DNA of 64,000 nt from Dehalococcoidia bacterium (GTDB lineage Bacteria > Chloroflexota > Dehalococcoidia > UBA2979). This document shows, one piece after another, positions 4,031 to 44,652 of this stretch. The notes below the pieces were generated by a model. That model saw only the letters and a program-made list of their open reading frames with translations. It was not told the DNA's origin and did no database searches. The DNA lies in the NCBI GenBank assembly GCA_020845735.1, contig JADLFF010000017.1:8704-72703 (forward strand), read 5' to 3'. The stretch's first letter is position 1, and each line of letters starts with the position of its first letter. Position numbers and translations under genes: made by a program.

Positions 4031-4052
4031 CACTACCGTCGCTACGCCTCGA

Positions 4053-6826: not shown

Positions 6827-6908
6827 CGACGGACCTCTCTGCACGGGGCACCAGGAACGAGGAAGCTCGATCTTAAGTCGTGGATTCGAGATGCACGAGT
6901 GCGCGCGG

Positions 6909-8048
6909 CTAGACGGGGACGCTCGCAGCCCGGCGAACCCCGTCGCGCTGCTCCCACGCCCAGTCGTTGAGCAGCATCAGCCCGCCTGCCACGAGGGAGT
7001 GCCCGCCGAGCACCACCGGCACCGGCGCGGCGTTCGCAGCCTCGACGAGCGAGCGCAGACCCGCGTCCGTGATTTCCGAGGCGAGCCCGAGGTCCGCCGC
7101 GAACCGGTCCGCCCTCGATGGGTGCAGTCCCAGCTGGACCAGCGCGGGCCGGATATCGAGGAACGCGGCCCCACCGAGGTCGGGCAGCAGCTCCGAGAAG
7201 AAGCGCTGCGACCCCGCCTCGGCGAGCAGCATCCCCAGCAGCGAGCGCGCCGAGCCGTCCGTCTCGCGGCCGGCCGCGGACATGCCGCGCTCCTCGGCAA
7301 GCAGGCGCACACGGCAGGCCGTCTCCCGCTCGAGGTACTGCCAGGCCCGCGATGACACGCGCCCCGCCACCAGCACCTCGGCGTGGCGGTCAGTGAACAG
7401 GCGTGCCGCCTCGCCAAGCCGAGGGAGCACGGGGACATCGGCCAGCGCGCGCCGCAATCGAGGCCCGCCGCGACCGCTGAGCGCCAGCGCTGCGAGGTCG
7501 ACGGGCGTATCGAGGTTGGTCTGCGTGGCGAGCGAACGCGGGAGCTCCACGAACTCGATCCCGCACTCGTCACGCAGGCGCCGAGGAACGCCGTTGTCCT
7601 TCGTTGGACGCGGCGTCAGCTGCCCGAGCGCGGCCGCCGGCCGCACCCCGAACAGGTCCGCCGAGTAGAAGTTGTTGCTGACCCCTCGGGGGTCGGGAGT
7701 GTCGAGCGCCGCGGCGAGCGCCTCGAAGTCCGCCCCCGCGAGGAGCGGCGCGCTCCCCCCGCCGAGGTAGACAACAGCCGCAGCATCGCGCTCGCGAATC
7801 GCGTCCGCGAGGCGCGTGCCGAACTCGAAGGGTGCGCCCGGCGCGTCGACGTCCACCTCGATGGACGGGGGCACCTCGAGCACCGGCGGCCGGTCCGCGA
7901 TGAGGAGACCTCGCTCGTACGCACCGGTCGCGAGGGCGACCTCGAGGGCATCGAGCGCGCTCGCCTCGAGGGCGCTCCGCAGCTGCTCCTCGAGGCGCCC
8001 GCCGCTCATGCCGCCCAGCATGACGATGAGCCAGGGACGAGCGTTCAT
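6909..8048 (-). CDS. hypothetical protein, two internally similar alpha/beta domains (possibly nucleotidyltransferase-like)
   Basis: Long ORF with protein-like composition. Start placed at [13 protein letters not shown] (ATG near 8048), 30 nt downstream of the pfkB stop. No confident family assignment. Confidence 0.45.
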
Positions 8049-8076
8049 CGGACCTCGATCCCGGGCGTCCGGAACG

Positions 8077-9036
8077 CTACGCGCGGACAGCGACGTGACG
8101 CGCCACGGGCTCGACCACGCCGTTGGGGAGGAGCTCGTTGACATCTCCCCGATGACAGAGCGCCGTCCCGGGGGCCATGCACACCGCAGCACCCACCGCC
8201 GAGGCGAGGCGAAGCGACTCCGCCCAGCCGCGCTCCTGCCGAAGTCCCAGCAGCAGCCCCGCGAGGAAGCCATCGCCTGCCCCGACCGCGGAGTCCACGG
8301 TGACGAGGGGTGGCATCGCGCGAAACTCGCCCTCTGGGGTCACCGCGACGGCGCCCTCGCCGCCACGCGTGATCACGGCGCTGTCGATGCCCATGCGCCG
8401 CACCGCGCGCGCGCCATCGAGGGCCTTCTCCTCGGAGCTGCAGTCGCGATGGAGCAGGCGACCGAGCTCGTGGTCGTTCATCTTGAGGATCGTGGGCTGC
8501 GCGCCAAGGGCGAACACCTGCTCTACGACCGGGCCATCCGCATCGAGGACGGACATGGCACCGAGCGCCTGCACGCGACCAAGCGCTTCCGCGTGGAAGG
8601 TGACCTCCATCCCCGGAGGCATCGAGCCGGCGAACACGAGGCAGGTGTCGCGCCGGATCCGTCGATGCAGGTGCCGGCTCAGGCGGTCGATCGCCTCGGG
8701 CGGCACGACGGGCCCGGGTGCCGCGAGCACCGTGCTCTGGTGCACGGAGCGGTCGAGGATATTGATGTTGGTACGCGTCTCGCCGGGGTAGGGGATGAAG
8801 TCGCAGCCGATGCCCTCGTCGGTGAGCTGCTCCTCGATCATCCCGCCGAAGCGTCCCGGAGCGAACCCCATCGCGAGGGGTTCGTAGCCCAGCTCCTTGA
8901 GCACGCGGGCCACGTTGACGCCCTTGCCGCCGATGTCGCGGCGGATGGCGACCACCCGATTCGTATCGGCGGTCACCAGCCGATCGACCTCGACCGTCTC
9001 ATCAACAGCGGGGTTGAGCGTGATAGTGATGATCAT
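8077..9036 (-). CDS. PfkB-family sugar kinase (1-phosphofructokinase / tagatose-6-phosphate kinase-like)
   Basis: MIITITLNPAVD...GGKGVNVA N-terminus and C-terminal DSAVGAGDGFLAGLL motif typical of FruK/LacC ribokinase-superfamily kinases. Confidence 0.75.
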   Translation of the reverse strand: MIITITLNPAVDETVEVDRLVTADTNRVVAIRRDIGGKGVNVARVLKELGYEPLAMGFAPGRFGGMIEEQLTDEGIGCDFIPYPGETRTNINILDRSVHQSTVLAAPGPVVPPEAIDRLSRHLHRRIRRDTCLVFAGSMPPGMEVTFHAEALGRVQALGAMSVLDADGPVVEQVFALGAQPTILKMNDHELGRLLHRDCSSEEKALDGARAVRRMGIDSAVITRGGEGAVAVTPEGEFRAMPPLVTVDSAVGAGDGFLAGLLLGLRQERGWAESLRLASAVGAAVCMAPGTALCHRGDVNELLPNGVVEPVARHVAVRA

Positions 9037-29325: not shown

Positions 29326-30801
29326 CTAGGAGCCGCTCACGGCCACGGGCAGCGCATGCCGATCGCCCGCGGTGTCCGCCTCGAGGAGGAACTTGTCGAG
29401 CTGGAGGGGGACCGGGCTCGGGTAGGAGCCGCTGAAGCACGCCGTGCAGAGCGACTGCTCCCGGGAACCGGTGGCGTGCGCCGTGCCCTCGAGGGACAGG
29501 TAGCCCAGGGAGTCGGCGCCGATGTGGTCGCGAATCTCCTCGACGGAACGGTGTGCGGCGATCAGCTGCCCCTTGGTGGCCATGTCGACGCCGTAGAAGC
29601 AGGGATCGGTGATGGGAGGCGAGGTGATGCGCATGTGCACCTCGGAGGCGCCTGCCTTGCGCAGCATCGCCACTACCCGAGGCGTGGTCGTGCCGCGGAC
29701 GATGGTGTCGTCCACCACGATGACGCGCTTCCCCTCGAGGAGTTCGCGCAGCGGATTGAACTTGAGCTGGACCCCGCGCTCGCGCAGCCGCTGGTCGGGC
29801 TGGATGAACGTGCGGCCGACGTAGCGGTTCTTCACGAGGGCCTCGACGTACGGGATGCCCGACTCGCGCGCGTAGCCGTGGGCGGCAGCCGTCGCGGAGT
29901 CCGGCACGCCGATCACCATGTCAGCCTCGACGGGGTGCTCCCGCGCGAGCTGCGCGCCCATCTCCATGCGCACCGGGTAGAGCAGCTCGCCACCCAGCCT
30001 CGAGTCCGGCCGGGCGAAGTAGATGTACTCGAGGAGACAGAGGGCGGGGCGCTGCGGCTCGACCGCCTGCGTCGAGTGCAGCCCGTCGCTGTCGATGCGC
30101 ACGATCTCGCCGGGCAGCACCTCGCGCACCAGCTCCGCGCCGAGGTGGTCGAGTGCGCAGGTCTCGGAGGCGAGCACGTAGGCCCCACGGCCGTCGTTCA
30201 AGCGCCCGATGCAGAGCGGGCGGATGCCGTTGGGGTCGCGAAGCCCGTACACCGCATCGGTCGTGAGCATCGTGAGGGAATACGCACCGCTCGCGCGGCG
30301 CATCATGACCTCGAGGCGCTCTTCCCACGTCTCGCCCGGCGCGTTGGCCGCCAGCGCCGCGAGCACCTCGGAGTCCGTGGACGTTTCGAACTGCACGCCG
30401 CGCACCTCGAGGTCCGCGCGAAGCAGGTCGGCATTCACGACGTTGCCGTTGTGCGCGATCGCCAGTTGGCCGGCCAGCCCGTCGACGATGAACGGCTGCG
30501 CGTTGCGTACGACGCTCGAGCCGGTCGTCGAATAGCGCGTGTGACCGATGGCGGCGAACCCGGGGAGTCCGCTCAGGGCCGCCTCGTCGAAGATCTGCGA
30601 AACGAGGCCCATCGCGGCGAAGCGGTGAATCGAGCGCCCCTCGGTGGAGGCGATCCCCGCCGACTCCTGGCCGCGATGCTGGAGTGCGTGAAGCCCGAAG
30701 AAGGTGAGGCGAGCGACATCCTCGCCGGGAGCGTATACGCCGAAGACGCCGCACTTCTCGCGGATCATGTCCGGCGCTGAGGCCTCGGAGCGAGAATCCA
30801 T
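29326..30801 (-). CDS. purF: amidophosphoribosyltransferase
   Basis: Propeptide then the Cys nucleophile (MIREKCGVFGV), PRTase domain and C-terminal 4Fe-4S Cys ligands. Start at ATG 30801 with a GGGGAG RBS. The 190-aa upstream ORF extension is Arg-rich read-through. Confidence 0.9.
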   Translation of the reverse strand: MDSRSEASAPDMIREKCGVFGVYAPGEDVARLTFFGLHALQHRGQESAGIASTEGRSIHRFAAMGLVSQIFDEAALSGLPGFAAIGHTRYSTTGSSVVRNAQPFIVDGLAGQLAIAHNGNVVNADLLRADLEVRGVQFETSTDSEVLAALAANAPGETWEERLEVMMRRASGAYSLTMLTTDAVYGLRDPNGIRPLCIGRLNDGRGAYVLASETCALDHLGAELVREVLPGEIVRIDSDGLHSTQAVEPQRPALCLLEYIYFARPDSRLGGELLYPVRMEMGAQLAREHPVEADMVIGVPDSATAAAHGYARESGIPYVEALVKNRYVGRTFIQPDQRLRERGVQLKFNPLRELLEGKRVIVVDDTIVRGTTTPRVVAMLRKAGASEVHMRITSPPITDPCFYGVDMATKGQLIAAHRSVEEIRDHIGADSLGYLSLEGTAHATGSREQSLCTACFSGSYPSPVPLQLDKFLLEADTAGDRHALPVAVSGS

Positions 30802-32626: not shown

Positions 32627-33151
32627 CTAGTCGAGGGCGATCCACTCGGGGCGGGCGTAGAGCCGCACCCCGGCGCGCTCCCCCTCGTCCAGGGCCTGCA
32701 GCAGCTGCGTGACGCTCGACCCGATCTGCGGATGCACGAGGCCCGGCGCGACCTCCGCGAGCGGTACGAGGACGAACGCCCGCTGATGCATCGCGGCGTG
32801 GGGCACCTCGAGATCAGGCGCGCTGAACGTTTCGCCATCGATCAGCAGGATGTCCACATCGATGGGGCGTGCGCTGTTCCGTGGCGCTCGGAAGTCGCGG
32901 CCTGCCGCTGCCTCGATTGACTTGCACAGCGCCAGGAGACGGTACGGCGACAGGTCGGTCGTGCCGGCAACCACCGCGTTGAGGTAGTCGGGCTGCTCGA
33001 TGCCGCCCCACGGGGGCGTCTCGTAGATCGAGGACGTGCGATCGACCGCCACACCGCCGGCACGCAGGGCCGCGACGGCCTCCTGCAGTCGCGCGACGCG
33101 GTCACCGAGGTTGCTGCCCAGCGCGAGCCACACGCGCCGCGGGTCCGTCAC
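32627..33151 (-). CDS. folK: 2-amino-4-hydroxy-6-hydroxymethyldihydropteridine pyrophosphokinase
   Basis: VWLALGSNLGDR...IYETPPWGG...RPIDVDILL HPPK motifs. GTG start in a GTGA overlap with the folP stop. Confidence 0.8.
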   Translation of the reverse strand: MTDPRRVWLALGSNLGDRVARLQEAVAALRAGGVAVDRTSSIYETPPWGGIEQPDYLNAVVAGTTDLSPYRLLALCKSIEAAAGRDFRAPRNSARPIDVDILLIDGETFSAPDLEVPHAAMHQRAFVLVPLAEVAPGLVHPQIGSSVTQLLQALDEGERAGVRLYARPEWIALD

Positions 33152-34008
33152 GCGGACCCCTCGGGGGTCCAGCCGCGGACCACCGCGTCGGCCATGCGCA
33201 CCACATCGACCATCGCCGCCACGTCGTGCACGCGGACGATGTCGACACCGGCGGCCACCGCGAGGGCCATCGTGGCAGCGGTCCCCCACTCACGCTCCTC
33301 GACAGGCTGCCCGAGGACGAGCCCGATGGTCGACTTGCGCGACGTCCCGAGCAGGAGCGGCCGTCCGAGCGCGCGCAGCTCACCGAGGCGGCGCAGCATC
33401 TCGAGATTCTGCTCCGGCTTCCAGCCGAAACCGAATCCGGGGTCGACCACCAGCTGCTCCACGGGCACACCGCCCGCCTCAGCCGTCGCGAGCGACCGTT
33501 CCAGGCCGGCCCGGATGTCCGCGATCACGTCGCCGCCGAACGTGCGCCCTCGCTGGTTGTGCATGACGATCGCCGGCAGCCCGCGGCGCCCGAGGAGCGC
33601 CGCCAGACCGGCGTCGGCGAGCAACCCGTGCACGTCGTTCAGTGCGTCCGCTCCGAGGTCGAATGCGCGCTCGGCGACACGAGCCTTGCTCGTGTCGACT
33701 GTGATCGGCACAGAGACCACGCGGCGGACCGCACGCAGGACCGGCTCGAGGCGTCGCCACTCTTCCGTCGCGTCGACACCGGCGAAGTCCGGCCGGGTCG
33801 ACTCCGCACCCACATCGAGGAGGTCAGCGCCGTCCTCGACCATCCGCGCCGCCTGCTCGGCGGCGGTGCCGGGGTCCATGACCCCGTCCCCCGAGAACGA
33901 ATCGGGCGTCGCGTTGACGATCCCCATGACGTAGGTGCGGCGGCCCCAGGGAAAGGTGACCCCACCGATCGAGAGCGGCGCGGGGGCTGGCTGGCTCGGC
34001 GTCACCAC
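33148..34008 (-). CDS. folP: dihydropteroate synthase
   Basis: Pterin-binding TIM-barrel DHPS similarity throughout (IVNATPDSFSGDG..., DVGAEST...). Confidence 0.9.
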   Translation of the reverse strand: MVTPSQPAPAPLSIGGVTFPWGRRTYVMGIVNATPDSFSGDGVMDPGTAAEQAARMVEDGADLLDVGAESTRPDFAGVDATEEWRRLEPVLRAVRRVVSVPITVDTSKARVAERAFDLGADALNDVHGLLADAGLAALLGRRGLPAIVMHNQRGRTFGGDVIADIRAGLERSLATAEAGGVPVEQLVVDPGFGFGWKPEQNLEMLRRLGELRALGRPLLLGTSRKSTIGLVLGQPVEEREWGTAATMALAVAAGVDIVRVHDVAAMVDVVRMADAVVRGWTPEGSA

Positions 34009-34052: not shown

Positions 34053-34487
34053 TCAATCGACCACCTCGATCGGCTCTTCCTCGATGACGCCGCCCATGCG
34101 GATGTGGAAGGCGCGCACTGCGGGTGGGTCGTACTTCAGCGACACGAGCACGTAGTACGTCTCGGGGAACATCGGCTCGTTGTCGATCTCACCGGGAGGC
34201 CAGAAGGCCATGCGCACGTCGGTGGGTGACGGGTACGCCTCGGATGCCACGTGCGAGTGGTAGATGGCGAAGAGGGACTCGCCCTCGTCCTCGCGACGGC
34301 GGTCCAGCTTCAGCATCTGCAGCGGGTTCATCTCGTAGCGAAACGGGCTGGCGGCGTCGTTCTTCACGCGGATCGCCTCGAAGGCCACGCCGTCACGAGC
34401 ATGGACCATGCCGCACGCCTCGTTGGGTAGGTCCTGGTGAGCGTGGGAAACCATCGCCTCGATCACCGATGAGGGGATGCGCGGCAT
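34053..34487 (-). CDS. JAMM/MPN+ metalloprotease (Mec+/CysO-cysteine peptidase-like)
   Basis: JAMM motif E...HSHVASEAYPSPTD. Start at ATG 34487 with a GAGG RBS. Confidence 0.75.
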   Translation of the reverse strand: MPRIPSSVIEAMVSHAHQDLPNEACGMVHARDGVAFEAIRVKNDAASPFRYEMNPLQMLKLDRRREDEGESLFAIYHSHVASEAYPSPTDVRMAFWPPGEIDNEPMFPETYYVLVSLKYDPPAVRAFHIRMGGVIEEEPIEVVD

Positions 34488-34518
34488 CAGCGACCTCGCC
34501 CGGACGCGCGGGAGTCGA

Positions 34519-34905
34519 TCACGTCCACGCCTCGGGTTCCCCGTCGTCGACGCACGCACCGGCGGAGAGCCGCATCTGTAGGAACGCGGGACTCACGGGG
34601 CGGGCGAGCAGGTGGTCGATCCAGTGCGCCCACTCGTCCTCTGGAAGCCGGTCGACGAGGTCCTGGAACGGCACGTGCAGCGAGCCATCCGGGGCAATGC
34701 CCACATCGAGTGACCAGCGACCCGTGAGGGTGACGCGCCCGACGGAGCGCGTCCGCAGTAGCTGCGCACCCTCGATGGCGCGGTATCGAGCGATCACCGC
34801 GCCATCGAAGTACACATGGAGATTCGAGGCATCGCGGGTCGTGAGGGCACGACGCAGCACGGACTGCTGCAGCACCTTCGTCGCGCGGGCGTCGCTGCTG
34901 ACCAT
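34519..34905 (-). CDS. hypothetical protein
   Basis: ORF with protein-like composition between the rhodanese and the JAMM protease. No family recognised. Confidence 0.4.
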   Translation of the reverse strand: MVSSDARATKVLQQSVLRRALTTRDASNLHVYFDGAVIARYRAIEGAQLLRTRSVGRVTLTGRWSLDVGIAPDGSLHVPFQDLVDRLPEDEWAHWIDHLLARPVSPAFLQMRLSAGACVDDGEPEAWT

Positions 34906-34917
34906 GGTGGGGACTCG

Positions 34918-35742
34918 TTACTTCTCGATCGGCACGTCGATCATGGAGCCGTACTCGGTCCACGAGCCGTCGTAGTTCTTCACATCGTTGTTGCCGAGCA
35001 GGTACTTGAGGACGAACCACGTGTGGCTCGAGCGCTCGCCGATGCGGCAGTAGGCCGTCACCGGCTCGTTGACCTTGATCCCGGCGCCCTCGTAGAGCGC
35101 GCGGAGCTCGTCCTGCGTCTTGAACGTGCCGTCCTCGTTGACCGCGCGCGCCCAGGGGATGTTGCGCGCACCGGGGATGTGGCCCGCGCGCTGGGCGGTC
35201 TCCGTCATACCCGGGGGCGCGATGATCTCGCCGCTGAACTCGGCGGGACTGCGCACATCGACCAGTTGCCGTCCGCCGTGGCGGGCGATCTCGATGACCT
35301 CGTCGCGCCGTGCGCGCAGCGCCTGGTTGGGCGCCTGTGCCTTGTACGTCGCGGGCGCCACCGAGGGCACATCGGTGACCGTCGGGCGGTTGTCGGCGAG
35401 CCACTTCACGCGCCCACCGTCCATCAACGACACGTTCTCGTGCCCGTACAGCTCGAGGAGCCACAGCGCATAGGCAGCGAACCAGTTGTTGTTGTCGCCG
35501 TAGAGCACCACGTGCGTGTCGTTGGACACCCCCGAGGCGCTCAGCAGCTCCTCGACGCCCTCGCGGGTGAGGATGTCGCGACGCTGCGCGTCCTGCAGCT
35601 GCGTCGTCCAGTTCCACGCGATCGCGCCCTCGACGTGGCCCTCGGCGTAGGCCGACGTGTCCACGTCAACCTCGACGAGGCGAACGCCGGGCTCGTCCTT
35701 GTGCTGCGCGACCCAGTCCGCGCTCACCAGCTTGTCAACCAT
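34918..35742 (-). CDS. thiosulfate/3-mercaptopyruvate sulfurtransferase (tandem rhodanese domains)
   Basis: Two rhodanese domains with the catalytic Cys loop CRIGERSSH in the second. Confidence 0.8.
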   Translation of the reverse strand: MVDKLVSADWVAQHKDEPGVRLVEVDVDTSAYAEGHVEGAIAWNWTTQLQDAQRRDILTREGVEELLSASGVSNDTHVVLYGDNNNWFAAYALWLLELYGHENVSLMDGGRVKWLADNRPTVTDVPSVAPATYKAQAPNQALRARRDEVIEIARHGGRQLVDVRSPAEFSGEIIAPPGMTETAQRAGHIPGARNIPWARAVNEDGTFKTQDELRALYEGAGIKVNEPVTAYCRIGERSSHTWFVLKYLLGNNDVKNYDGSWTEYGSMIDVPIEK

Positions 35743-35818
35743 GTCGTCCCCCCGATCCGCTCAGCATCCGTTGGCCCCGGCACGTGACAGCGTACAGATT
35801 CGACCGCGCTTCGCGGCC

Positions 35819-36787
35819 TCACCACCACAGCTTGTCGGCGACGTCTTCCTCGATCGTGGCGTAGTCCGTCGTCCAGAGGTGCGAGGACAGGTACTTCCAG
35901 CCACCGTCCGCCAGCAGGCAGACGACGTGCCCCTCCTCGATGCGTTCCGCGAGCCGCTGCGCCGCACGCACGACCGCGCCTCCCGAGATGCCCGCGAAGA
36001 TGCCGGTGCGCTGCGTGAGCTCGCGCGTGACACGGAACGACGTGGCCGAATCGACCACGATCCGCCCATCGAGGACCGACTCGTCGAGGACTGGCGGGAT
36101 GTACCCCTCCTCGAGACTGCGCAGGCCCTGCACCTGGTCGCCGGGATGCGGCGCCGCCGCGATGATGCGCACGCCGGGGCGCTCCTCCTTGAGGCGCCGC
36201 CCGGTCCCGGTGAGCGTCCCGCCGGTACCCAGCCCGGCCACGAAGTGCGTCACCTCGGGCAGGTCCGCGAGGATCTCGGGCGCCGTGGTGTAGTAGTGAG
36301 CGCTCGGGTTCTGCGGGTTCTCGTACTGGAACGGCATGAACCAGTCCGGGTGCTGCGCGGCCACCTCGCGCGCCAGTGCCACCGAGCCGTTCGTCCCGAG
36401 GTCGCCCGGCGAGTAGATGATCTCCGCGCCGAACGCCTGCAGGAGCTCAGTGCGCTCCGGGCTCACCGCATCCGGCATGACGACCTTGACCGGGTACCCC
36501 TTGAGCCGCCCGACGAGGGCGAGCGCGATCCCGGTGTTCCCGGAGGTCGGCTCAAGGATGGTCTGGCCGGGTTGCAGGCGCCCCTCCCGCTCGGCCGCCT
36601 CGATCATGAACTTCGCGATCCGGTCCTTGACGGACCCCGTCGGGTTCTGCCCCTCGAGCTTGGCGTAGAGGCGCACGCCCGGCTTCGGCGAGAGCTCGGA
36701 GATCTCGACGAGTGGCGTGTTGCCGACCATGTCCAGGACTGAGCGGTAGCGCACGGAACGCGTGGCCCCGCTATGCGCCGCCGGCAA
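35819..36787 (-). CDS. cysM: PLP-dependent cysteine synthase, CysM-type (thiocarboxylate-dependent O-phosphoserine sulfhydrylase-like)
   Basis: GNTPLVEI...NPTGSVKDR...TSGNTGIALA motifs. Sits immediately downstream of the CysO-like carrier. Start may be the internal GTG near 36754 rather than 36787 (17-nt overlap with cysO). Confidence 0.75.
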   Translation of the reverse strand: MPAAHSGATRSVRYRSVLDMVGNTPLVEISELSPKPGVRLYAKLEGQNPTGSVKDRIAKFMIEAAEREGRLQPGQTILEPTSGNTGIALALVGRLKGYPVKVVMPDAVSPERTELLQAFGAEIIYSPGDLGTNGSVALAREVAAQHPDWFMPFQYENPQNPSAHYYTTAPEILADLPEVTHFVAGLGTGGTLTGTGRRLKEERPGVRIIAAAPHPGDQVQGLRSLEEGYIPPVLDESVLDGRIVVDSATSFRVTRELTQRTGIFAGISGGAVVRAAQRLAERIEEGHVVCLLADGGWKYLSSHLWTTDYATIEEDVADKLWW

Positions 36788-37049
36788 GCGCCGGCAGGAT
36801 GGACACCTCGTCGCCGTCGGTCAGCTCGGTGTCGGCGCCCTTCAGGTAGCGGATGTCCTCGTCGTTCAGGTAGATGTTGACGAATCGATGCAGCACGCCC
36901 TGCTCATCGGCGAGCTGCTCCCGGAAGCCCGGATAACGCGAGTCGATGTTCGAGATGAGCTCGCCGATCGTGCGCCCCTCGCTGGTGAACGCACGCTGGT
37001 TGTCGACGACCTTTTGAATCACCGAGGTGACAAGGACCTTCACCGGCAC
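36771..37049 (-). CDS. cysO: ThiS/MoaD-family sulfur-carrier protein, CysO-like (C-terminus ...ALAGGA)
   Basis: 92-aa beta-grasp protein ending in Gly-Gly plus one Ala, adjacent to CysM. Confidence 0.7.
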   Translation of the reverse strand: MPVKVLVTSVIQKVVDNQRAFTSEGRTIGELISNIDSRYPGFREQLADEQGVLHRFVNIYLNDEDIRYLKGADTELTDGDEVSILPALAGGA

Positions 37050-37124
37050 GCTGTCGTCCTTCCATCGATGCCGCGGCCGCGCAGCCGCGGCCCGTCAACC
37101 GCACGCAGAGCTGGAGGTGCGAGG

Positions 37125-38240
37125 CTAGTCGCCCACGGCCTCCAGCATGAGCGGCGGGGTGCCGCAGAACTGGTCGTAGTCGATGAGCTCGTTCACCGTC
37201 GGGTTGTCACCGCAGAGGGGGCACGCCGGGTCGCGGCGGATGCGCATCGTGCGGAACTCCATCGTGAGGGCATCGACGAGCAGGAGCCGGCCGACGAGCG
37301 GCTCGCCGATCTCGAGGACCTGCTTGAAGACCTCGGTGGCCTGGATGGAGCCGATGATCCCCGTGATCGCGCCAAGCACGCCGGCCTCGGCGCACGAGGG
37401 CACCAGCCCCGGGGGAGGCGGCGAGGGGTAGAGGCAGCGGTAGCAGCCCTGGCCGGGCTTGTAGACCGTCGCCTGCCCGTCGAAGAGCAGGATCGAGCCG
37501 TCGACCAGCGTCTTGCCGAGCAGGTAGGCGGCGTCGTTGACGAGATAGCGGGTCGCGAAGTTGTCCGCGCCGTTCACGATGATGTCGTAGTCCCGGATGA
37601 TCTCCATCGCGTTGTCCGAGGTGATCGGCATCTCGTGGAGGCGGACATTCACCCCCGGGTTGTACGCGTTGAGCGTCTCCTGGGCGGACAGGGCCTTGCG
37701 CTTCCCGACATCGGCAGTCTGGTGCAGCAGCTGCCGCTGGAGGTTCGAGAGGTCGACCGTGTCGAACTCGACGATCCCGACTGTGCCCACACCCGCCAGC
37801 GCGAGGTAGATCGCCACCGGGGAGCCCAGCCCGCCGGCACCGATGATCAGGACCTTCGCGGCCTTGAGCTTGCGCTGCCCGACCGGCCCCACCTGGCCCA
37901 TGATGATGTGGCGCGAGTAGCGCATGACCTCGTCGGCGGAGAGCGCCTGCGAGGCAACACCGTCGGAACCACCCGCGAGCGCTGGGATTACCGCCACCTG
38001 GTCACCGTCCTCGACCTGCGTGTCCACGCCCGACAGGTCGTGGATCTCCTGGTTGTTCACGTAGATGTTGATGTGCCTCGGCACGCGGCGGTCACTGTCG
38101 TAGACCAGCATGTCGAAGCCCGGGTACTGGGCGTTCACCGCGTCGAGGACCTCGCTGATGTTGCGGCCCTCGACGCTGACGTACTCGCGGTTCGCCGTAA
38201 GGCGGCGGAACGGCGAGGGAATGTAGACGCTCACCGCCAC
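37125..38240 (-). CDS. fusion protein: N-terminal ThiS/MoaD-like beta-grasp domain (ends ...ALAGG-SDG) joined to MoeB/ThiF-type E1 adenylyltransferase with C-terminal CxxC...CxxC zinc site
   Basis: Residues 1-91 resemble the neighbouring CysO (VSVEGRNISEVLDAVNAQYPGF...VAVIPALAGG). Residues 110-371 show E1 motifs (RYSRHI, LIIGAGGLGS, CYRC, CPLCG). Confidence 0.75.
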   Translation of the reverse strand: MAVSVYIPSPFRRLTANREYVSVEGRNISEVLDAVNAQYPGFDMLVYDSDRRVPRHINIYVNNQEIHDLSGVDTQVEDGDQVAVIPALAGGSDGVASQALSADEVMRYSRHIIMGQVGPVGQRKLKAAKVLIIGAGGLGSPVAIYLALAGVGTVGIVEFDTVDLSNLQRQLLHQTADVGKRKALSAQETLNAYNPGVNVRLHEMPITSDNAMEIIRDYDIIVNGADNFATRYLVNDAAYLLGKTLVDGSILLFDGQATVYKPGQGCYRCLYPSPPPPGLVPSCAEAGVLGAITGIIGSIQATEVFKQVLEIGEPLVGRLLLVDALTMEFRTMRIRRDPACPLCGDNPTVNELIDYDQFCGTPPLMLEAVGD

Positions 38241-38340
38241 CCTGGTGTCCTCTCGCTGACCGCTCCCGCGAGCGGCTCCGTTACGTCCGATTGTGCCAAT
38301 ACGAGCCGCTTCACGCTCGTGAGTGCTGCGCGCTCGCGGG

Positions 38341-39285
<945 letters not shown>

Positions 39286-39324
39286 GCCTTCCCGAACGCC
39301 GTCTCCCAGTGCGAGACGTTCAGC

Positions 39325-39771
39325 CTAGATCGAGTAGTTCGCCTGCCGCGACTGCAGTCGCTCGCGTTCGCGCGCCGCGAGGTCCGCGATCGACACTGCG
39401 GTGAGCCGCCGTCGCGTCTCGTCGTAGATGTCCCGCCAGACCCACTGCTGCCCACAGAGGACGTTGTGCTCGTGGTCGTCCGCTTCGTCCTCGAGACAGG
39501 CGAGCGGGGCGAGCGACCCCTCCAGGCTCTCGAGGGCGTGCAGGAGACACATCTCCTCGGCGGGACGGGCCAGCTCATGTCCCCCGCCGGGGCCCCTGGT
39601 GCTGCGCACGAAGCCATCGCGTCGGAGCTGGGCCAGCAGGTGATCGAGATACGACTCGGGGATCTGCTGCCGGCGCGCGATCTCGGATCGCTGCACCGGA
39701 CCGTCGCCTCCGTAGATCGCGAGGTCGATCAGCGCGCGTACACCGTAATCACCCTTGGTACTGAGTCGCAT
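39325..39771 (-). CDS. Rrf2-family transcriptional regulator (CymR/IscR-like)
   Basis: MRLSTKGDYGVRALIDLA HTH N-terminus typical of Rrf2; Cys residues in the C-terminal half. Confidence 0.8.
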   Translation of the reverse strand: MRLSTKGDYGVRALIDLAIYGGDGPVQRSEIARRQQIPESYLDHLLAQLRRDGFVRSTRGPGGGHELARPAEEMCLLHALESLEGSLAPLACLEDEADDHEHNVLCGQQWVWRDIYDETRRRLTAVSIADLAARERERLQSRQANYSI

Positions 39772-39794
39772 CATGCTGCGAACCCCGGCTGCCA

Positions 39795-39822
39795 TATTCT
39801 CGACTAACTTTGTCGAGTATAG
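39795..39822 (-). promoter_or_regulatory. palindromic operator candidate TATACTCGAC-N7-GTCGAGAATA overlapping a TATACT -10 box, about 25 nt upstream of the Rrf2 gene
   Basis: Seen directly. The arrangement resembles IscR/CymR-type inverted-repeat sites and suggests autoregulation. Confidence 0.4.
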
Positions 39823-39877
39823 CACCGTCTTCCGCGCGGAATGCTAGTCCCGATCACCCGACCGGCCCCCGAGTGGA

Positions 39878-40435
39878 CTACCCGCGCGACCCCTCGCGAG
39901 CACGGATCTCGACGAGCGCCCGCAGCGCCTGAGGTGACGCGTCGGGGAGATCGTCGAACGCCGACTGCAACGGCTGCGCTGCGATTTCGGACGTGGTGGG
40001 GCCATTGGGCTCGACCCGGGCGCCGGGTGGGATCGCACTCGCCGAGCCGGTCACGAAGCAGACGGTGGCTGCCGCCGTATCGAGGGCAAGCACCTGCTCG
40101 GGCCACCAGGCGAGGCGGGACGCCTTCGTTTGCAGCCCCTGTGTCAGCTGCACGCCAAACGCCGGGTCGATGGGGCCCAGCGGATACTCGCGGCAGACTC
40201 TGGAGACGCGGTCCCAGTTCGGATCGGACTTCGCCGAGCGCAGCGCGTCACGCAGTGCTCGTGCGGAATCGACGGCAGCCGACACCTCGCGAACCGTGGC
40301 TTCGACGTCTGCCTCGGAGGTGACCGCCGAGCCGGACACGGGTGGCACGGGCGTCGGCGACACCGCCACGCCGGAGGTCCCAGCGCAGCCGGCGAGCAGC
40401 GCCGCAAGACAGACCAGGACCTTCCCGAGTGTCAC
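39878..40435 (-). CDS. putative lipoprotein (signal peptide + LAGC lipobox), unknown function
   Basis: MTLGKVLVCLAALLAGCAG... N-terminus. Lies between the ThiS-like gene and the Rrf2 gene. Confidence 0.5.
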   Translation of the reverse strand: MTLGKVLVCLAALLAGCAGTSGVAVSPTPVPPVSGSAVTSEADVEATVREVSAAVDSARALRDALRSAKSDPNWDRVSRVCREYPLGPIDPAFGVQLTQGLQTKASRLAWWPEQVLALDTAAATVCFVTGSASAIPPGARVEPNGPTTSEIAAQPLQSAFDDLPDASPQALRALVEIRAREGSRG

Positions 40436-40486
40436 CCACGCCCTCGCGCATCCATGCAGAGCGGCACCTCGACTGGACGTCGCGGG

Positions 40487-40765
40487 TCAGACGCCTCCGG
40501 CGACCGCCGGCACGATCGACACCTCGTCGCCCGCCTTGAGGTCGGTCGACAGCCCCTGGAGGAAGCGCACGTCCTCGCCGTTCACGTAGATGTTGACGAA
40601 GCGACGCAGCTCGCCGGTGTCATCGCACAGCCGCTCGCGCATGCCGGGGAACTCGCTCTCGAGGTTGGCCACCAGGTCCTGCAGGGTACCGGCCTCGGTG
40701 CTCACGGTGTCGCGGTTGAGCGTGAGCGCGCGGAGGGGTGTGGGGATCTTCACAGTCACGGGCAT
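40487..40765 (-). CDS. ThiS/MoaD-family sulfur-carrier protein (C-terminus ...AVAGGV)
   Basis: 92 aa, paralogous to CysO (same FVNIY...GDEVSI..A.AGG pattern). Confidence 0.65.
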   Translation of the reverse strand: MPVTVKIPTPLRALTLNRDTVSTEAGTLQDLVANLESEFPGMRERLCDDTGELRRFVNIYVNGEDVRFLQGLSTDLKAGDEVSIVPAVAGGV

Positions 40766-40814
40766 CTTGCGTTGCTTTCCTTAGGCTCGATTGGCGGCGG
40801 GTGGCGTCCGAGGG

Positions 40815-41060
40815 CTACCCGCCCTCGACGACATCTCCCGCCAGGGAGTCGATCCGCACGCCGAGCTCCTCGGCCCAGTGCAGACTCCGGTCGATCTCGG
40901 ACGGATCCCCCTCCAGCTCGAGGATGACCCAGCCCACCTGCTCGTCGACATCCGCCATCCGGATGTTGGTGACCACCTTGAACTCGTGCCCCAGCCGGTA
41001 GATCACCGGCTCCGTGATGAGCTGGGGCTCGAACGTCAGTCGCACTCGCTTCTTGGCCAT
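40815..41060 (-). CDS. 81-aa NIL-domain-like small protein ending in -Gly-Gly, candidate sulfur carrier (MetO-like) coupled to the ThrC-like gene
   Basis: MAKKRVRLTFEPQLITEPVIYRLGHEFKVVTNIRMADVDEQVGWVILELEG...DVVEGG. Its start codon lies 1 nt after the stop of the upstream ThrC-like gene. Confidence 0.55.
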   Translation of the reverse strand: MAKKRVRLTFEPQLITEPVIYRLGHEFKVVTNIRMADVDEQVGWVILELEGDPSEIDRSLHWAEELGVRIDSLAGDVVEGG

Positions 41061-41061
41061 G

Positions 41062-42318
41062 TCAGGCACCCACTCCCGCCGGAACACGTGCGTTGCGCGC
41101 GCGCAGCGCCTCGTCGAAGGCTGCCGACCGCGCCGGGATGTGAATCGGCTCGTCCATCGAGTCGAGGACCGCCTCGACGGTCTTGAGTCCGGCGCCCGTG
41201 ATGAAGGCGACCGTCTCCTCGTTCGGGTTGATGGCGCCACTCGCGACGAGCTTCTTCAGGCAGGCGACGGTGACCCCACCCGCGGTCTCCGCGAAGATGC
41301 CCTCGGTCTCTGCGAGGAGGTAGATGCCCTCGACGATCTCCTCGTCGGTGGCCATCTCCGCGCCACCACCGGTCTCGTCCATCACCTTCAGCGCGTAGTA
41401 GCCGTCCGCCGGATTCCCGATGGCGAGCGACCTCGCGATGGTGTTCGGCTTCTGCGGCACGAAGTTGAACGTGTGATTCTGGAAGGCGGTGGCGATCGGC
41501 GAGCAGCCGCTGGCCTGCGCCCCCGACATCCGCGTGTGGGGCTCGTCGATCAGTCCCACCTTGTGGAGCTCCTGGAAGCCCTTCCAGATCTTCGTGAAGA
41601 GCGACCCGGAGGCCATCGGCGCCACGACGTGCTGAGGCGCGCGCCACCCGAGTTGCTCCGCCACCTCGTACGCGAGCGTGCGCGAGCCCTCGGCGTAGTA
41701 GGGGCGCACGTTGATGTTCACGAACGCCCAGTTGTGGTCCGCTGCCACCTCGGTGCACAGCCGGTTCACGTCGTCGTACGACCCCTCGATCATGACGAGC
41801 GTCGGGCGGTACACGCCGCTCCCGACGACCTTCCCCTGCTCGAGGTCATCGGGGATGAACACGTAGGCGTCCATCCCGGCGGCCGCGGCATGCGCGGAGA
41901 CGGAGTTCGCGAGGTTGCCCGTGCTCGCGCAGGCAATGGCCTCGAACCCGAACTGCCGCGCGCGGGCAATTGCCACGGAGACGACTCGATCCTTGAACGA
42001 CCACGTCGGGTTGACCGTGTCGTTCTTGATCCAGAGCTGCTTGAGGCCCACCGCGCGGGCGAGGCGTTTCGCATCGATCAGCGGCGTGTACCCCGTGCCG
42101 ATGTCCACCTTGTAGGCGGGATCGCAGGGGAGGAGGTCGGCGTATCGCCACAGCGTCGAGGGACCGGCCTCGATCCGGTCACGCGAGATGGACTCGCGGA
42201 TGCCGTCGTAGTCGTAGGCCACCTCGAGGGGACCGAAACAGAACTCGCATGAGAAGACGGGCGCGAGATCGTACTCGCGGCCACACTCCCGGCAGCGCAG
42301 CGCTCGTTCGAACGACAT
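41062..42318 (-). CDS. threonine synthase-family PLP enzyme with N-terminal Cys4 zinc ribbon (MetM-like candidate O-phosphohomoserine-dependent homocysteine synthase)
   Basis: Fold-type II PLP enzyme (SFKDR lysine motif) with a ThrC-like C-terminal half. CRECG...CEFC zinc ribbon. Preceded by a SAM-I riboswitch. Confidence 0.8.
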   Translation of the reverse strand: MSFERALRCRECGREYDLAPVFSCEFCFGPLEVAYDYDGIRESISRDRIEAGPSTLWRYADLLPCDPAYKVDIGTGYTPLIDAKRLARAVGLKQLWIKNDTVNPTWSFKDRVVSVAIARARQFGFEAIACASTGNLANSVSAHAAAAGMDAYVFIPDDLEQGKVVGSGVYRPTLVMIEGSYDDVNRLCTEVAADHNWAFVNINVRPYYAEGSRTLAYEVAEQLGWRAPQHVVAPMASGSLFTKIWKGFQELHKVGLIDEPHTRMSGAQASGCSPIATAFQNHTFNFVPQKPNTIARSLAIGNPADGYYALKVMDETGGGAEMATDEEIVEGIYLLAETEGIFAETAGGVTVACLKKLVASGAINPNEETVAFITGAGLKTVEAVLDSMDEPIHIPARSAAFDEALRARNARVPAGVGA

Positions 42319-42497
42319 GGGTACTGACTCCGGACCCGCGTCCTTCCGGACGCAGACAATGCAACTTGCTGGTGCCGCCTGAACGCCCGAGTCGTCACCC
42401 CTCGCGGGGTCACGATCGGGCTAGCGCATCGCCATGCCGTGTGCTGCCGCGCGGCAACGAGATGTGGAGTCGGGCTCGACCATCGAGGGGGCGCCTT

Positions 42498-42620
42498 CCG
42501 TTCATCTTCCCCGCCCGGCGTGCCGGAAGGGTCGGAATTGGCACCGTGTCCACCTCGGCGAAGGATGGCCGGTTGCCGTGGCTTCGATGGGCCGTGACCC
42601 TCAGCCACTCTGGATGAACC
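42498..42620 (-). promoter_or_regulatory. SAM-I riboswitch (S-box) aptamer in the 5-prime leader of the ThrC-like/NIL/ThiS-like operon
   Basis: Minus-strand RNA reads UUCAUCCAGAGUGGCUGAGGGUCACGGCCCAUCGAAGCCACGGCAACC...GGUGCCAAUUCC...GGAAGAUGAAC. This matches the conserved S-box blocks (GAGGGA, UGGCCC, AUGAA, GGCAACC, GGUGCCAAUUCC, GAAGAUGA), and P1 pairs UUCAUC with GAUGAA. Confidence 0.75.
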
Positions 42621-42645
42621 GCGCCCAGGGCGCAGAGTGCGTCAT

Positions 42646-42675
42646 ACGCTACGGCCCGTTTCGGAAATCTGTCAA
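42646..42675 (-). promoter_or_regulatory. candidate sigma-70 promoter TTGACA-18nt-TAGCGT about 25 nt upstream of the riboswitch
   Basis: Perfect -35 hexamer; -10 matches TAnnnT. Confidence 0.4.
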
Positions 42676-42693: not shown

Positions 42694-42957
42694 CTAGCGG
42701 CCTCGGAGGGCACGCCGCACGCGGTCGAGGTCGACCGGGGCCTGCGTCGTGATCGCGCCGTCGACCTCGACGACAGGGATCTCGAGGAGCCAGCGCTTCG
42801 CGAGCTCGCCGTCGGAGTGGATATCGACCTCACTGAACACAAACGGGATTTCCCGGGCGAGGAGCTGCAGGCCCCGCCGCGCCTCCTCGCAGAGGTGGCA
42901 GCCCGGGGCCGAGTACAGGACCACCGAGTGCACACCGGGCACGCGCTGCGCGGCCAC
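42694..42957 (-). CDS. glutaredoxin-like protein (DUF836/Grx2 family, CHLC active site)
   Basis: VVLYSAPGCHLCEE motif. No ATG in frame; GTG start near 42957 inferred (the longer ORF-track N-terminus is Arg/Ala-rich). Confidence 0.5.
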   Translation of the reverse strand: MAAQRVPGVHSVVLYSAPGCHLCEEARRGLQLLAREIPFVFSEVDIHSDGELAKRWLLEIPVVEVDGAITTQAPVDLDRVRRALRGR

Positions 42958-42959
42958 GG

Positions 42960-43859
42960 CTAGAGATCGCCGCCGCGACGCCCGCGCGTGGGGCGCGCCG
43001 GCGCAACCACGCGAATGCGCGCCGCGCTCGGACTCGACGCAGGCGCCGGCTGCAGCGGCCGCGGATGCCTCCAGAGCCACAGCATCGCCGGGATAGAGGC
43101 AATGACGACGACCACGGCGATCATCTGAGGCACATCGAGGCCGAATGCCGCGCCCGCCGAGTCGACGCGGAGGAACGAGACCAGGAACCGGAGCACCGAG
43201 TACACGTCGAGGAACACGAAGAACAGGAGGCCGGGCCAGGCGCGCAGGCGCTCGAGCAGCACGAACATGAACCCCAGCAGGAGCAGCATGCCCAGCATCT
43301 CGTAAGTTGTGGCCGGGTGGTGCGGACCAACGGCCAGCGAGTGCGCGAAGGCCGGCGAGTCTCGATCGGTGTAGACCACACCCCACGGCAACGTGGTCGC
43401 CGTGGCGAGGTGCTCGCCGTTGATGAGGTCACCGAGGCGCCCGATCGCGAGGCCGACGAGCAGCCCGAAGGCGGCCGAGTCCAGGCCGAGCCGAACGTCG
43501 TAGCGCCGCCACATCGCGAAGAGGAGCCCCGAGAGCACACCACCGATGACGGCACCCCAGACCGAGATGCCGCCCTCGTTCAGCGCAAGGATCTCGAGCG
43601 GGCGCTCGCGGAAGAACGTCCAGTGCTCGACGACGTAGAGCATGCGCGCGCCGAGGACCCCGCCGGGCACGGCGACGAGGGAGATCGAGTACGCATCGTC
43701 CTCGTCGAAGCCGATCCGTCGCCCGATGAACAGCGCGAGCTGGACCCCCGCCAGGATGCCCACGGCGGTGAACAGTCCGTGCCACGTGAGGACGATGCCG
43801 CCGATCGTGACGATGTTCGGGTCCCACGGGATCCCGATGGCGAGCAATGGCACGACCAC
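42960..43859 (-). CDS. lgt: prolipoprotein diacylglyceryl transferase
   Basis: Lgt signature GRLGDLINGEHLG and multiple TM helices. GTG start with a GAGGGG RBS, 4 nt after the upstream stop. Confidence 0.8.
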   Translation of the reverse strand: MVVPLLAIGIPWDPNIVTIGGIVLTWHGLFTAVGILAGVQLALFIGRRIGFDEDDAYSISLVAVPGGVLGARMLYVVEHWTFFRERPLEILALNEGGISVWGAVIGGVLSGLLFAMWRRYDVRLGLDSAAFGLLVGLAIGRLGDLINGEHLATATTLPWGVVYTDRDSPAFAHSLAVGPHHPATTYEMLGMLLLLGFMFVLLERLRAWPGLLFFVFLDVYSVLRFLVSFLRVDSAGAAFGLDVPQMIAVVVVIASIPAMLWLWRHPRPLQPAPASSPSAARIRVVAPARPTRGRRGGDL

Positions 43860-43863
43860 CCCC

Positions 43864-44652
43864 TCAGGCCACGCCGAAGAGCTGGAGGTAGAGGCTGCGC
43901 ACGACCGCCGGCTCCACGCCCTCGCCGAGGAACGTGTCGCCGATGCGCACCTCAGCGTGGAGGTGCATCTCCGTGCCCGGTGCCGTGATGAACTCGGGCG
44001 TGCCCGACTCACCCACACCGCCGAGCTGCTGCCCGGCCTGGACCTGGACCCCAACTCGGATGCCCGGGGTGATCGAGCTCAGGTGGCAGTAGCGGGTCAC
44101 GATGCCCCCGCCGTGATCGACCCATACCTGGCGGCCTCGATAGGTGTCCAGCGTCTGGGGGTCCGAGAACCCCTGCTTCGCAGTGAGCTCGCCGAGCTGG
44201 CGGACCTGCTCGGGAGTGATGTCCCGGTAGTCGAGCTCCGCGCGCACGACGGTCCCTGCGTACATCGCCGTCACCGGCGTCCCGAACTGGATCACCGCGC
44301 ATGAGGACCCTGCGTAGAAGTCGAGGCCCTCGTGGACGCCGTTACGGTACGTCCGAGGAGCGTTCGGGAGCAGGGCGTCCGATTGCGGCAGGCAACCACC
44401 CTGCACGGGCCAGGCGAATGGCCTCGGGATCCGGCGATCCAGGACCGGCGAGCGCGGATCAGGCGTCGCCGAGGGCGTCACCGGCGCCGGAGTGGCCGTG
44501 CGCAGCGCGGGAGCGAGCACCAGCTCCTGCGTCGGCGTGGGAGTCGGTGGCGACGCCACGGCCTCGGAGCCGCCACACCCGACGAGCGCCAGCGCACCCA
44601 CTCGGGTCGCCAGTGTGAGGAACGCGCGGCGGCTGACTCGATGGAACTCCAC
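43864..44652 (-). CDS. M23-family peptidase, putative lipoprotein (Tat-like RRAFLTL, LVGCGG lipobox)
   Basis: C-terminal LytM domain (HGGGIVTRYCHL...GQQLGGVGESG...HLHAEV). GTG start near 44652 inferred. Confidence 0.6.
   Translation of the reverse strand: MEFHRVSRRAFLTLATRVGALALVGCGGSEAVASPPTPTPTQELVLAPALRTATPAPVTPSATPDPRSPVLDRRIPRPFAWPVQGGCLPQSDALLPNAPRTYRNGVHEGLDFYAGSSCAVIQFGTPVTAMYAGTVVRAELDYRDITPEQVRQLGELTAKQGFSDPQTLDTYRGRQVWVDHGGGIVTRYCHLSSITPGIRVGVQVQAGQQLGGVGESGTPEFITAPGTEMHLHAEVRIGDTFLGEGVEPAVVRSLYLQLFGVA

Follow-up and report, generated by a model that had tools for sequence, protein, structure and literature searches.

Adjoining operons predicted to make cysteine and homocysteine from carrier-bound sulfur in a Dehalococcoidia genome

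We analyzed a 64,000-nucleotide stretch of a Dehalococcoidia bacterium (Chloroflexota, lineage UBA2979; assembly GCA_020845735.1, contig JADLFF010000017.1, forward-strand positions 8,704 to 72,703), called the window below and numbered from its first nucleotide. It contains a cluster of genes for sulfur amino-acid synthesis, all on the minus strand between 34053 and 42620, that is arranged as two adjoining operons. These operons probably make cysteine and homocysteine by way of protein thiocarboxylates, with one activation set serving both branches. The family assignments, motifs, gene order, conservation and riboswitch that underlie this reading were observed directly. A first-pass annotation of the same DNA had proposed a sulfur amino-acid cluster with ThiS-type carriers and both branches, and this part of its proposal is supported: the genes that it named lie where it placed them, and each of them has a domain or family match.

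Organization of the cluster

In transcription order, the first operon consists of an S-adenosylmethionine (SAM)-I riboswitch, metM, a gene for a NIL-domain protein and metO. The second runs rrf2, cysK, a thiS~E1 fusion gene, cysO, cysM, a rhodanese gene, a gene for a 128-amino-acid protein and a JAMM peptidase gene. The individual features are as follows.

42499-42620, minus strand: SAM-I riboswitch aptamer, leader of the metM operon (RF00162)
41062-42318, minus strand: metM, ThrC-like pyridoxal phosphate (PLP) enzyme, predicted homocysteine synthase (PALP, E 2.4e-67)
40815-41060, minus strand: standalone NIL-domain gene, 81 amino acids (PF09383, E 2e-15)
40487-40765, minus strand: metO, ThiS-family carrier, 92 amino acids, C-terminus AGG-V (PF02597, E 2e-18)
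39878-40435, minus strand: lipoprotein-like open reading frame with lipobox LLAGC, a lineage-specific insert between the modules (no family match)
39799-39817, no strand assigned: perfect palindrome CTCGAC-N7-GTCGAG, a candidate Rrf2 operator; its spacer is AT-rich, and it directly follows a -10-like TATACT
39325-39774, minus strand: rrf2 regulator, first gene of the cysteine operon (PF02082, E 1.7e-33)
38341-39285, minus strand: cysK, O-acetylserine sulfhydrylase of the A type (TIGR01139)
37125-38240, minus strand: ThiS~E1 fusion, with the ThiS part at 37965-38240 ending in PALAGG-S, then a linker and a MoeB/ThiF part (PF02597 and PF00899)
36771-37049, minus strand: cysO, ThiS-family carrier, C-terminus AGG-A (PF02597, E 1.3e-15)
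35819-36754, minus strand: cysM, Mycobacterium-type O-phosphoserine sulfhydrylase (best Protein Data Bank matches 3DWG and 3DKI)
34918-35742, minus strand: tandem-rhodanese sulfurtransferase with active-site loop CRIGERS (two PF00581 stretches, E 3e-32)
34519-34905, minus strand: gene for a conserved 128-amino-acid protein, upstream of the JAMM gene
34053-34487, minus strand: JAMM/MPN+ metallopeptidase, Mec-like (PF14464, E 1.4e-18)

In the NCBI record of this metagenome-assembled genome (proteins MCC6236223 to MCC6236233), the cluster genes are annotated as 'threonine synthase', 'NIL domain-containing protein', 'MoaD/ThiS family protein' and 'hypothetical protein'. Two entries in the earlier gene list needed revision. 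It had started the NIL gene at 41240, which we corrected to 41060 (81 amino acids), and it had overlooked the conserved 128-amino-acid gene at 34519-34905. The lipobox open reading frame at 39878-40435 is not part of the sulfur system, because in loci from related genomes (numbered L002 and so on below) the same slot holds different genes (L002, L003, L085) or none (L084).

The activation genes occur once. Searching the window by tblastn with each cluster protein turned up the E1, JAMM, rhodanese and NIL genes once each, so the proposal of a single E1, a single JAMM peptidase and a single tandem rhodanese is confirmed for these 64 kb. The three PLP enzymes that had been named (CysM-type, CysK and threonine-synthase-like) were also confirmed, and all of them match PF00291, fold type II.

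We propose the following model. Its catalytic steps, its carrier-enzyme pairings, the release of the ThiS domain from the E1 and the part played by the NIL protein are all patterned on characterized homologues. When SAM is low, MetM would turn O-phosphohomoserine into homocysteine with sulfur from the C-terminal thiocarboxylate of MetO, and the NIL protein, translationally coupled to MetM, would act as an accessory. Rrf2 would repress its own promoter from the palindrome, the candidate operator. The JAMM peptidase would expose Gly-Gly termini by taking the Ala off CysO and the Val off MetO and by cutting the third ThiS domain from the E1, and it would hydrolyze the CysO-cysteine adduct in a Mec-like manner. 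Adenylation of the carriers would fall to the sole MoeB-type E1, and the tandem rhodanese would provide persulfide sulfur to form the carrier thiocarboxylates. CysM would make cysteine from CysO-thiocarboxylate and O-phosphoserine. CysK would work as an ordinary O-acetylserine sulfhydrylase; it may in addition partner with Rrf2.

Homocysteine branch and the NIL protein

Judged by sequence and synteny, the ThrC-like enzyme and the AGGV-ending ThiS protein form a MetM/MetO pair that would follow the route of Hasebe et al. (2024). The first-pass annotation had invoked the HcyS/HcyD/HcyF system for homocysteine and had listed the NIL protein as a carrier that ends directly in Gly-Gly. Neither reading survived our analysis. 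No MetY-type gene is present between 34053 and 42620, and the likeness is to the MetM/MetO route instead. The partner of the ThrC-like enzyme appears to be the AGGV ThiS protein.

Solved threonine synthases align with MetM only from about residue 55 onward. The region before this point contains a Cys4 ribbon (CxxC...CxxC; residues 9-27, window 42238-42294, minus strand) that is absent from the solved threonine synthases, and its four cysteines (C9, C12, C24 and C27) are invariant. The ribbon has been lost in 10 cyanobacterial MetM homologues, Microcystis included. NIL genes accompany ribbon-bearing MetM only (30 versus 0), but all but one of the ribbon-less MetM proteins are cyanobacterial, so this association is confounded by phylogeny and was not used. 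The closest solved relative of MetO is Mycobacterium tuberculosis CysO (3DWG_C), and MetO scores above the cut-off of the SAMP1 model NF041918 (65.3 bits versus 60).

The pairing of MetM with a ThiS-type carrier recurs broadly. We scanned genomes with an alignment of seven MetM sequences, obtained the close relatives from exact-protein look-ups instead, and labeled neighboring genes by BLASTP against the window proteins. The scan returned 80 loci (57-67% identity) from Chloroflexota, Acidimicrobiia, Nitrospirota, Cyanobacteria, Aquificaceae, Syntrophaceae, Methylomirabilota and Verrucomicrobiia. The gene directly 3' of metM was an orthologue of the window AGGV ThiS protein in about 72 of 83 loci (43-75% identity). 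These MetO orthologues mostly end in PAVAGG. Many carry one or two residues past the Gly-Gly (GGQ, GGR, GGH, GGSR, GGAA, GGV, GGLL, GGCF and others), which suggests that trimming of MetO by a JAMM peptidase is the common situation.

Microcystis was informative for the identity of MetO. We had started from the assumption that MetO is the NIL protein and dropped it because the sole MetM neighbor in Microcystis (L077) is ThiS-like: a 94-amino-acid protein ending in VPAVAGG and 58% identical to the window MetO. The Microcystis carrier gene has been described as 47% identical to S. albulus (Streptomyces albulus) MetO and named a sulfur-carrier family protein (PMC12172450), and the same source mentions the SAM riboswitch of S. 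albulus. The GapMind 2026 description of the pathway lists MetO as the carrier, Mec as the enzyme that matures MetO, MoeZ as the sulfur ligase and MetM as the homocysteine synthase, and it notes that MetM is 'often misannotated' as threonine synthase. In five other cyanobacterial loci (L017, L022, L034, L049 and L060), an extra, divergent ThiS-like gene lies just upstream of metM in addition to the downstream metO. Its product ends in PPVSGG in four of them and in SGGAA in L060.

The riboswitch at the head of this operon is a strong match to RF00162 (73.5 bits versus a gathering score of 44.4) and covers the whole model (positions 1-108 of 108). A SAM-I aptamer precedes metM in the window and at 7 of the 15 other loci tested (L002, L003, L084 and L085, L004 from an Anaerolineaceae, and L014 and L047 from Acidimicrobiia), and none was found at the 8 other MetM loci tested. 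In the window leader we detected no promoter-like sites and no U-tract terminator after the aptamer. Terminator-like sites occur at chance level, and the fold has a z-score of -1.1.

The NIL gene begins with an ATG at 41060, one nucleotide past the metM stop, and codes for 81 amino acids ending in VVEGG. The first-pass annotation had counted it among four beta-grasp carriers. Three of these hold up as ThiS domains. An AlphaFold2 model of the NIL protein (single sequence, predicted local distance difference test score (pLDDT) 74.5) has a beta-alpha-beta-beta-alpha-beta arrangement. Foldseek ranks MetN C2/NIL domains first (6CVL, 2QSW, 3DHX and 3CED) and ACT- and PII-like proteins after them. 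The modeled fold is thus ferredoxin-like and not beta-grasp.

If the NIL protein were nonetheless a fourth carrier, its native Gly-Gly would be thiocarboxylated and would feed the ThrC-like enzyme, which would leave another purpose for the AGGV-ending ThiS protein. Its gene does sit between metM and the ThiS gene, immediately after metM. The window and L003 copies both end in EGG, and the C-terminal tail is conserved and modeled with low confidence (pLDDT about 33), as for a flexible tail. Two loci (L009, 10001-11518; L006, 5117-6630) also have a MetM-NIL pair with no adjoining ThiS gene; hydrolase-like genes come next in L009. However, the C-termini vary across the NIL proteins of 35 loci, the window copy being additional to these: EGG in 1, EG or DG in 19, ES in 4, VVE or IIE in 9, and EP or LP in 2. 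The Gly-Gly is therefore not conserved, and the fold matches that of MetN, not ThiS or ubiquitin. No NIL gene was found near metM in any of 30 cyanobacterial loci, while the ThiS neighbor is nearly universal. Finally, a Syntrophaceae metagenome-assembled genome (L042, 11288-11803, plus strand) encodes a single 171-amino-acid open reading frame in which MetO, reaching to AIAGG, is followed by a NIL domain ending in NIIE. The Gly-Gly of this protein belongs to its ThiS part. We consider it very unlikely that the NIL protein is a carrier.

The NIL protein is most likely a widespread accessory of MetM/MetO, namely a ligand-sensing subunit for methionine or homocysteine or a docking subunit, by analogy with characterized NIL domains. 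NIL domains of MetN bind methionine, and the Asn of the NIL motif is retained in the window protein (TNIR). The NIL gene adjoins metM in 18 of 26 Chloroflexota and 8 of 9 Nitrospirota loci; in Actinomycetota it lies within 10 kb of metM without adjoining it in 6 of 12 loci. The L042 fusion, which is directly followed by E1 and JAB genes, points to a functional tie between NIL and MetO. A NIL/ferredoxin protein is also needed in the unrelated DUF39 homocysteine pathway (PMC5764234).

Cysteine branch, activation enzymes and the fused carrier

CysO, CysM and the JAMM peptidase appear, from their closest homologues, to constitute the known CysO/CysM/Mec route. The best solved relatives of CysM are the M. 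tuberculosis CysM structures 3DWG and 3DKI (312 bits over a full-length alignment, compared with 244 for the next family). An Arg in the CysM motif GLRSLEEG lies opposite ALRNMDEG of the M. tuberculosis enzyme, where we take the aligned residue to be Arg220, and the C-terminal LW tail is retained. CysO has M. tuberculosis CysO as its closest solved relative (3DWG_C, 77.6 bits). Both free carriers, CysO and MetO, end exactly at Gly-Gly in L002 and L003, so the added Ala and Val are a particular trait of the organism in hand. CysK exceeds the cut-off of the O-acetylserine sulfhydrylase model TIGR01139 (435.6 bits versus 351), and its gene directly follows rrf2 in all relatives.

Candidate enzymes for the activation and processing steps are encoded in the same operon. 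The rhodanese scores 145 bits with the 3-mercaptopyruvate sulfurtransferase model, under the cut-off. The JAMM protein contains the sequence HSHVASEAYPSPTD, which reads H-S-H-x7-S-x2-D and leaves the metal motif H-x-H-x7-S-x2-D intact. The E1 passes the MoeB subfamily model NF004281 (290.7 versus a cut-off of 266) and does not reach the MoeZ model NF005902 (372 bits, cut-off 647). It has no rhodanese domain; the protein stops after its ThiF domain.

Some of these model scores bring to mind ubiquitin-like conjugation of the SAMP or TtuB type, in which the ThiS, E1 and JAMM proteins would serve also or mainly as modifiers, activating enzyme and deconjugase. The AGGV carrier scores above the SAMP1 cut-off, the E1 shows likeness to UbaA, which activates SAMPs (317 bits, under the cut-off), and the best NCBIfam match of the JAMM protein is 'desampylase', although far under its cut-off. 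Against this, each carrier gene lies beside a gene for a PLP sulfhydrylase of the thiocarboxylate-using type, a rhodanese gene is part of the operon, and regulation by SAM and Rrf2 suits biosynthesis. Family searches of the window proteins also showed no E2-like or target-recognition component. A role in conjugation is highly improbable, and we favor sulfur transfer to amino acids as the function of this set.

The E1 is fused to a carrier domain, as the first-pass annotation had recognized. The ThiS domain spans residues 7-91 (PF02597, E 1.2e-11) and the ThiF domain residues 108-341. The ThiS part is CysO-like, with 36-38% identity to both free carriers. All but one of the 120 best database homologues share the fused ThiS-ThiF architecture, and the named ones are from Dehalococcoidia or Chloroflexota metagenome-assembled genomes. 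The Gly-Gly at the junction is retained in 119-120 of 121 homologues; next come Ala or Ser and then a linker, whose length varies. In L018, a separate gene encodes the carrier as a 94-amino-acid protein ending in AGGVR, and the stop codon of this gene and the start codon of the E1 gene overlap (ATGA). The conserved Gly-Gly and the free-standing gene in L018 support the assignment of the fused domain as a genuine third carrier joined to its own E1.

The JAMM peptidase may release this domain, as we infer from the retained Gly-Gly and from characterized homologues. There is precedent in the fused MoaD-MoaE protein MoaX, which is reported to need cleavage after its Gly-Gly for activity (PMC4326299). 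CysK is one candidate acceptor for the third carrier because the order rrf2-cysK-thiS-E1 is constant; against this candidacy, CysK scores as a standard O-acetylserine sulfhydrylase. A more tentative proposal combines the two unusual components of the cluster. The NIL protein would be a hitherto overlooked third component of thiocarboxylate-dependent homocysteine synthesis, for sensing or docking, and may reflect a general role of NIL domains in homocysteine formation. The E1-fused ThiS domain would be a JAMM-released carrier, possibly for a CysK-type enzyme. Under this proposal, both amino acids would receive their sulfur from proteins and not from free sulfide. We regard this combined proposal as possible though doubtful.

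The 128-amino-acid protein is another feature of this operon. Its gene invariably accompanies the JAMM gene, lying either directly upstream or no more than a few genes away. The family is known only from Dehalococcoidia so far, has no Pfam domain and carries an invariant Cys-x-Asp-Asp-Gly near the C-terminus. AlphaFold2 gave a confident model, for which no structural relative was found.

The regulator at the head of the cysteine operon passes the Rrf2 superfamily model (113 bits versus 73) and does not reach the cut-offs for the CymR (86.6 versus 195) or IscR (92.8 versus 207) subfamilies. Only one Cys is invariant across seven orthologues, so the protein lacks the three-Cys site of IscR. The palindromic operator that had been reported at this gene was found as a perfect palindrome just upstream of rrf2, and we regard it as a candidate operator. 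An imperfect palindrome occupies the same position in L002 and L003. Allowing two or fewer mismatches, the pattern has 15 matches in the window versus 24 expected by chance, which means that no regulon can be defined from it. One other perfect CTCGAC-N7-GTCGAG is found at 30058-30076, inside the purF coding region and with a GC-rich spacer. As the pattern is not enriched, this copy probably arose by chance. The adjacency of rrf2 and cysK may parallel the CymR-CysK pair of Bacillus subtilis in that an Rrf2 regulator without a three-Cys site adjoins cysK; the low score against the CymR model sets the two apart. The idea of dual control by SAM and Rrf2 holds insofar as both regulators are present. 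They do not jointly control one unit, because each heads its own operon.

Conservation, known systems and meaning of the cluster

The gene-neighborhood comparison indicates that the arrangement is no coincidence. Six other Dehalococcoidia genomes (L002, L003, L084, L085, L009 and L018) also carry the two modules together, and their E1 proteins are 67-89% identical to the window E1 over the ThiF domain. L002, L003 and L084 share the order Lgt-Glrx-[riboswitch-metM-NIL-metO]-(insert)-[rrf2-cysK-thiS~E1-cysO-cysM-rhodanese-128aa-JAMM]-folP-folK. The insert between the modules consists of the lipoprotein gene in the window, acyl-CoA genes in L002 and an acetyltransferase gene in L003, and is missing from L084. 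Since the insert varies, we conclude that two operons have been kept side by side, not one transcription unit. In L085, the insert (3551-8554) contains genes for sulfite reductase, PAPS reductase, ATP sulfurylase and a permease-like protein, making the locus a larger sulfur-assimilation cluster; tblastn found no counterpart of these sulfate-assimilation genes in the window. In L009, the cysteine module and folP precede metM-NIL. L018 lacks the rhodanese and 128-amino-acid genes.

The neighborhood itself is conserved in close relatives. The genes for Lgt and a glutaredoxin-like DUF836 protein (42694-44054) upstream, and folP and folK (32627-34008) downstream, show the same degree of synteny as the cluster genes. 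The DUF836 protein might supply reducing power to the sulfur-transfer steps. A compact version of the cluster exists in Nitrospirota, with genes for a CysK-like enzyme, E1, MetM, MetO, NIL, E1 and JAB. These Nitrospirota clusters (L015, L020, L028, L037, L057, L058 and L080; positions of about 6.7-12 kb in L015) hold two full ThiF-domain E1 genes.

The conserved flanks allow a different account, in which the adjacency is historical. The modules would be independent operons in a conserved chromosome stretch (Lgt-Glrx to folP-folK) of one lineage, and MetO would be activated by an E1 encoded elsewhere. The differing inserts, the separate regulator of each module and the equally syntenic flanking genes fit this account, as does the absence of a nearby cysteine module from most Chloroflexota loci with the metM operon; an E1 gene lies within 10 kb of metM in only about 14 of 82 loci. 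Yet MetO needs an E1 and usually a JAMM peptidase, and the sole copies in the 64 kb belong to the neighboring module. The modules remain neighbors in L009 despite their changed order, and the gap between them in L085 is filled with sulfate-assimilation genes. In Nitrospirota and Syntrophaceae, E1 and JAB genes are found directly inside the metM cluster. We judge a purely historical adjacency to be unlikely and prefer the model of a shared activation set.

Several points weigh against that model. Modules are usually not adjoining, as most other Chloroflexota loci have the metM operon alone. The functional coupling of the two modules is deduced across variable inserts and separate regulators. 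The E1, JAMM and carrier census covers 64 kb of the genome, and further copies may exist elsewhere in it. The assignment of MetO as a ThiS-type protein draws on two secondary sources (GapMind 2026; PMC12172450) together with synteny. The MetM-NIL pairs in L009 and L006 suggest that carrier use may be flexible or that the NIL protein may do more than we assume.

We compared the cluster to characterized systems. The closest parallel to the homocysteine operon is S. albulus MetM/MetO (Hasebe et al. 2024, Appl Environ Microbiol 90:e01247-24). As described in GapMind 2026 and PMC12172450, it shares a ThrC-like PLP enzyme with a ThiS-type carrier after it, an upstream SAM riboswitch, carrier residues past the Gly-Gly that need a Mec-type JAMM peptidase, and a MoeZ-type E1 that is also used for cysteine synthesis. 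The window differs in having its E1, JAMM and rhodanese genes beside the metM operon, a NIL gene between metM and metO, and an E1 with an N-terminal ThiS domain and no rhodanese domain. The CysO/CysM/Mec/MoeZR system of M. tuberculosis provides the closest relatives of CysM and CysO and has in common a JAMM peptidase and one E1 for several carriers. Gene order, the Rrf2 regulator, the extra Ala on CysO and the presence of cysK in the operon distinguish the window from it. Unlike in MoeZ, the window rhodanese is a separate tandem-domain protein and the E1 carries an N-terminal ThiS domain.

Other systems share parts of the logic. The HcyS/HcyD/HcyF/MetY system of Wolinella succinogenes (Krishnamoorthy & Begley 2011) likewise makes homocysteine with a ThiS-type carrier that bears a residue past its Gly-Gly, is trimmed by a JAMM peptidase and is activated by an E1. 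Its acceptor enzyme is the O-acetylhomoserine sulfhydrylase MetY (fold type I), whereas the window enzyme is ThrC-like (fold type II). NIL domains are tied to homocysteine or methionine metabolism in the NIL/ferredoxin proteins MA1822 and DvMF_0262 of the DUF39 pathway and in the C2/NIL domain of MetN, as they are here. The window NIL protein differs in being a standalone 81-residue protein with no ferredoxin or ABC domain, and it accompanies an unrelated synthase, MetM/MetO. M. tuberculosis MoaX (PMC4326299) resembles the ThiS~E1 fusion, since both join a partner enzyme to a carrier domain whose Gly-Gly is internal. The window partner is an E1 and not a synthase, and its cleavage is predicted.

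The first-pass annotation had presented the cluster type, and the use of one E1 and one peptidase for several carriers, as unfamiliar. Both have precedents. Sharing is documented for MoeZR, which serves CysO and MoaD (PMC3227635), and for MoeZ and Mec, which are used with MetO (GapMind 2026). Iyer, Burroughs & Aravind catalogued operons of ThiS, E1, JAB and cysteine synthase genes in 2006 (types 4c and 4e, one of the operons being from Chloroflexus; PMC1779556), together with sulfate-assimilation variants whose E1 lacks a rhodanese domain, as in L085. They also described ubiquitin-like (Ubl) domains fused to the ThiF N-terminus alongside standalone ThiS genes. Their neighborhoods lack a ThrC-like enzyme or NIL gene, and the fused Ubl was called distinct from ThiS; in contrast, the fused domain in the window is CysO-like and retains its Gly-Gly. 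Both branches and the principle of sharing have thus been described before. Four things are new: the union of the two modules in one lineage; a ThiS~E1 fusion whose junction is conserved and putatively cleavable; the widespread NIL accessory, including its fusion to MetO; and the 128-amino-acid protein beside the JAMM peptidase.

About 8.6 kb hold the full set of genes believed necessary for the CysO/CysM and MetM/MetO routes, including the E1, the peptidase and the sulfurtransferase. The cluster offers natural comparative evidence for one activation set serving both branches and a convenient minimal gene set for reconstitution and tests of carrier specificity. Homologues of MetM are labeled 'threonine synthase', and their reannotation would close apparent gaps in methionine synthesis in Chloroflexota, Nitrospirota, Acidimicrobiia and Aquificota. 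The most useful lead is the NIL accessory, a domain of the DUF39 pathway (PMC5764234) that recurs here beside another homocysteine synthase and, in L042, has been fused to the carrier of that enzyme.

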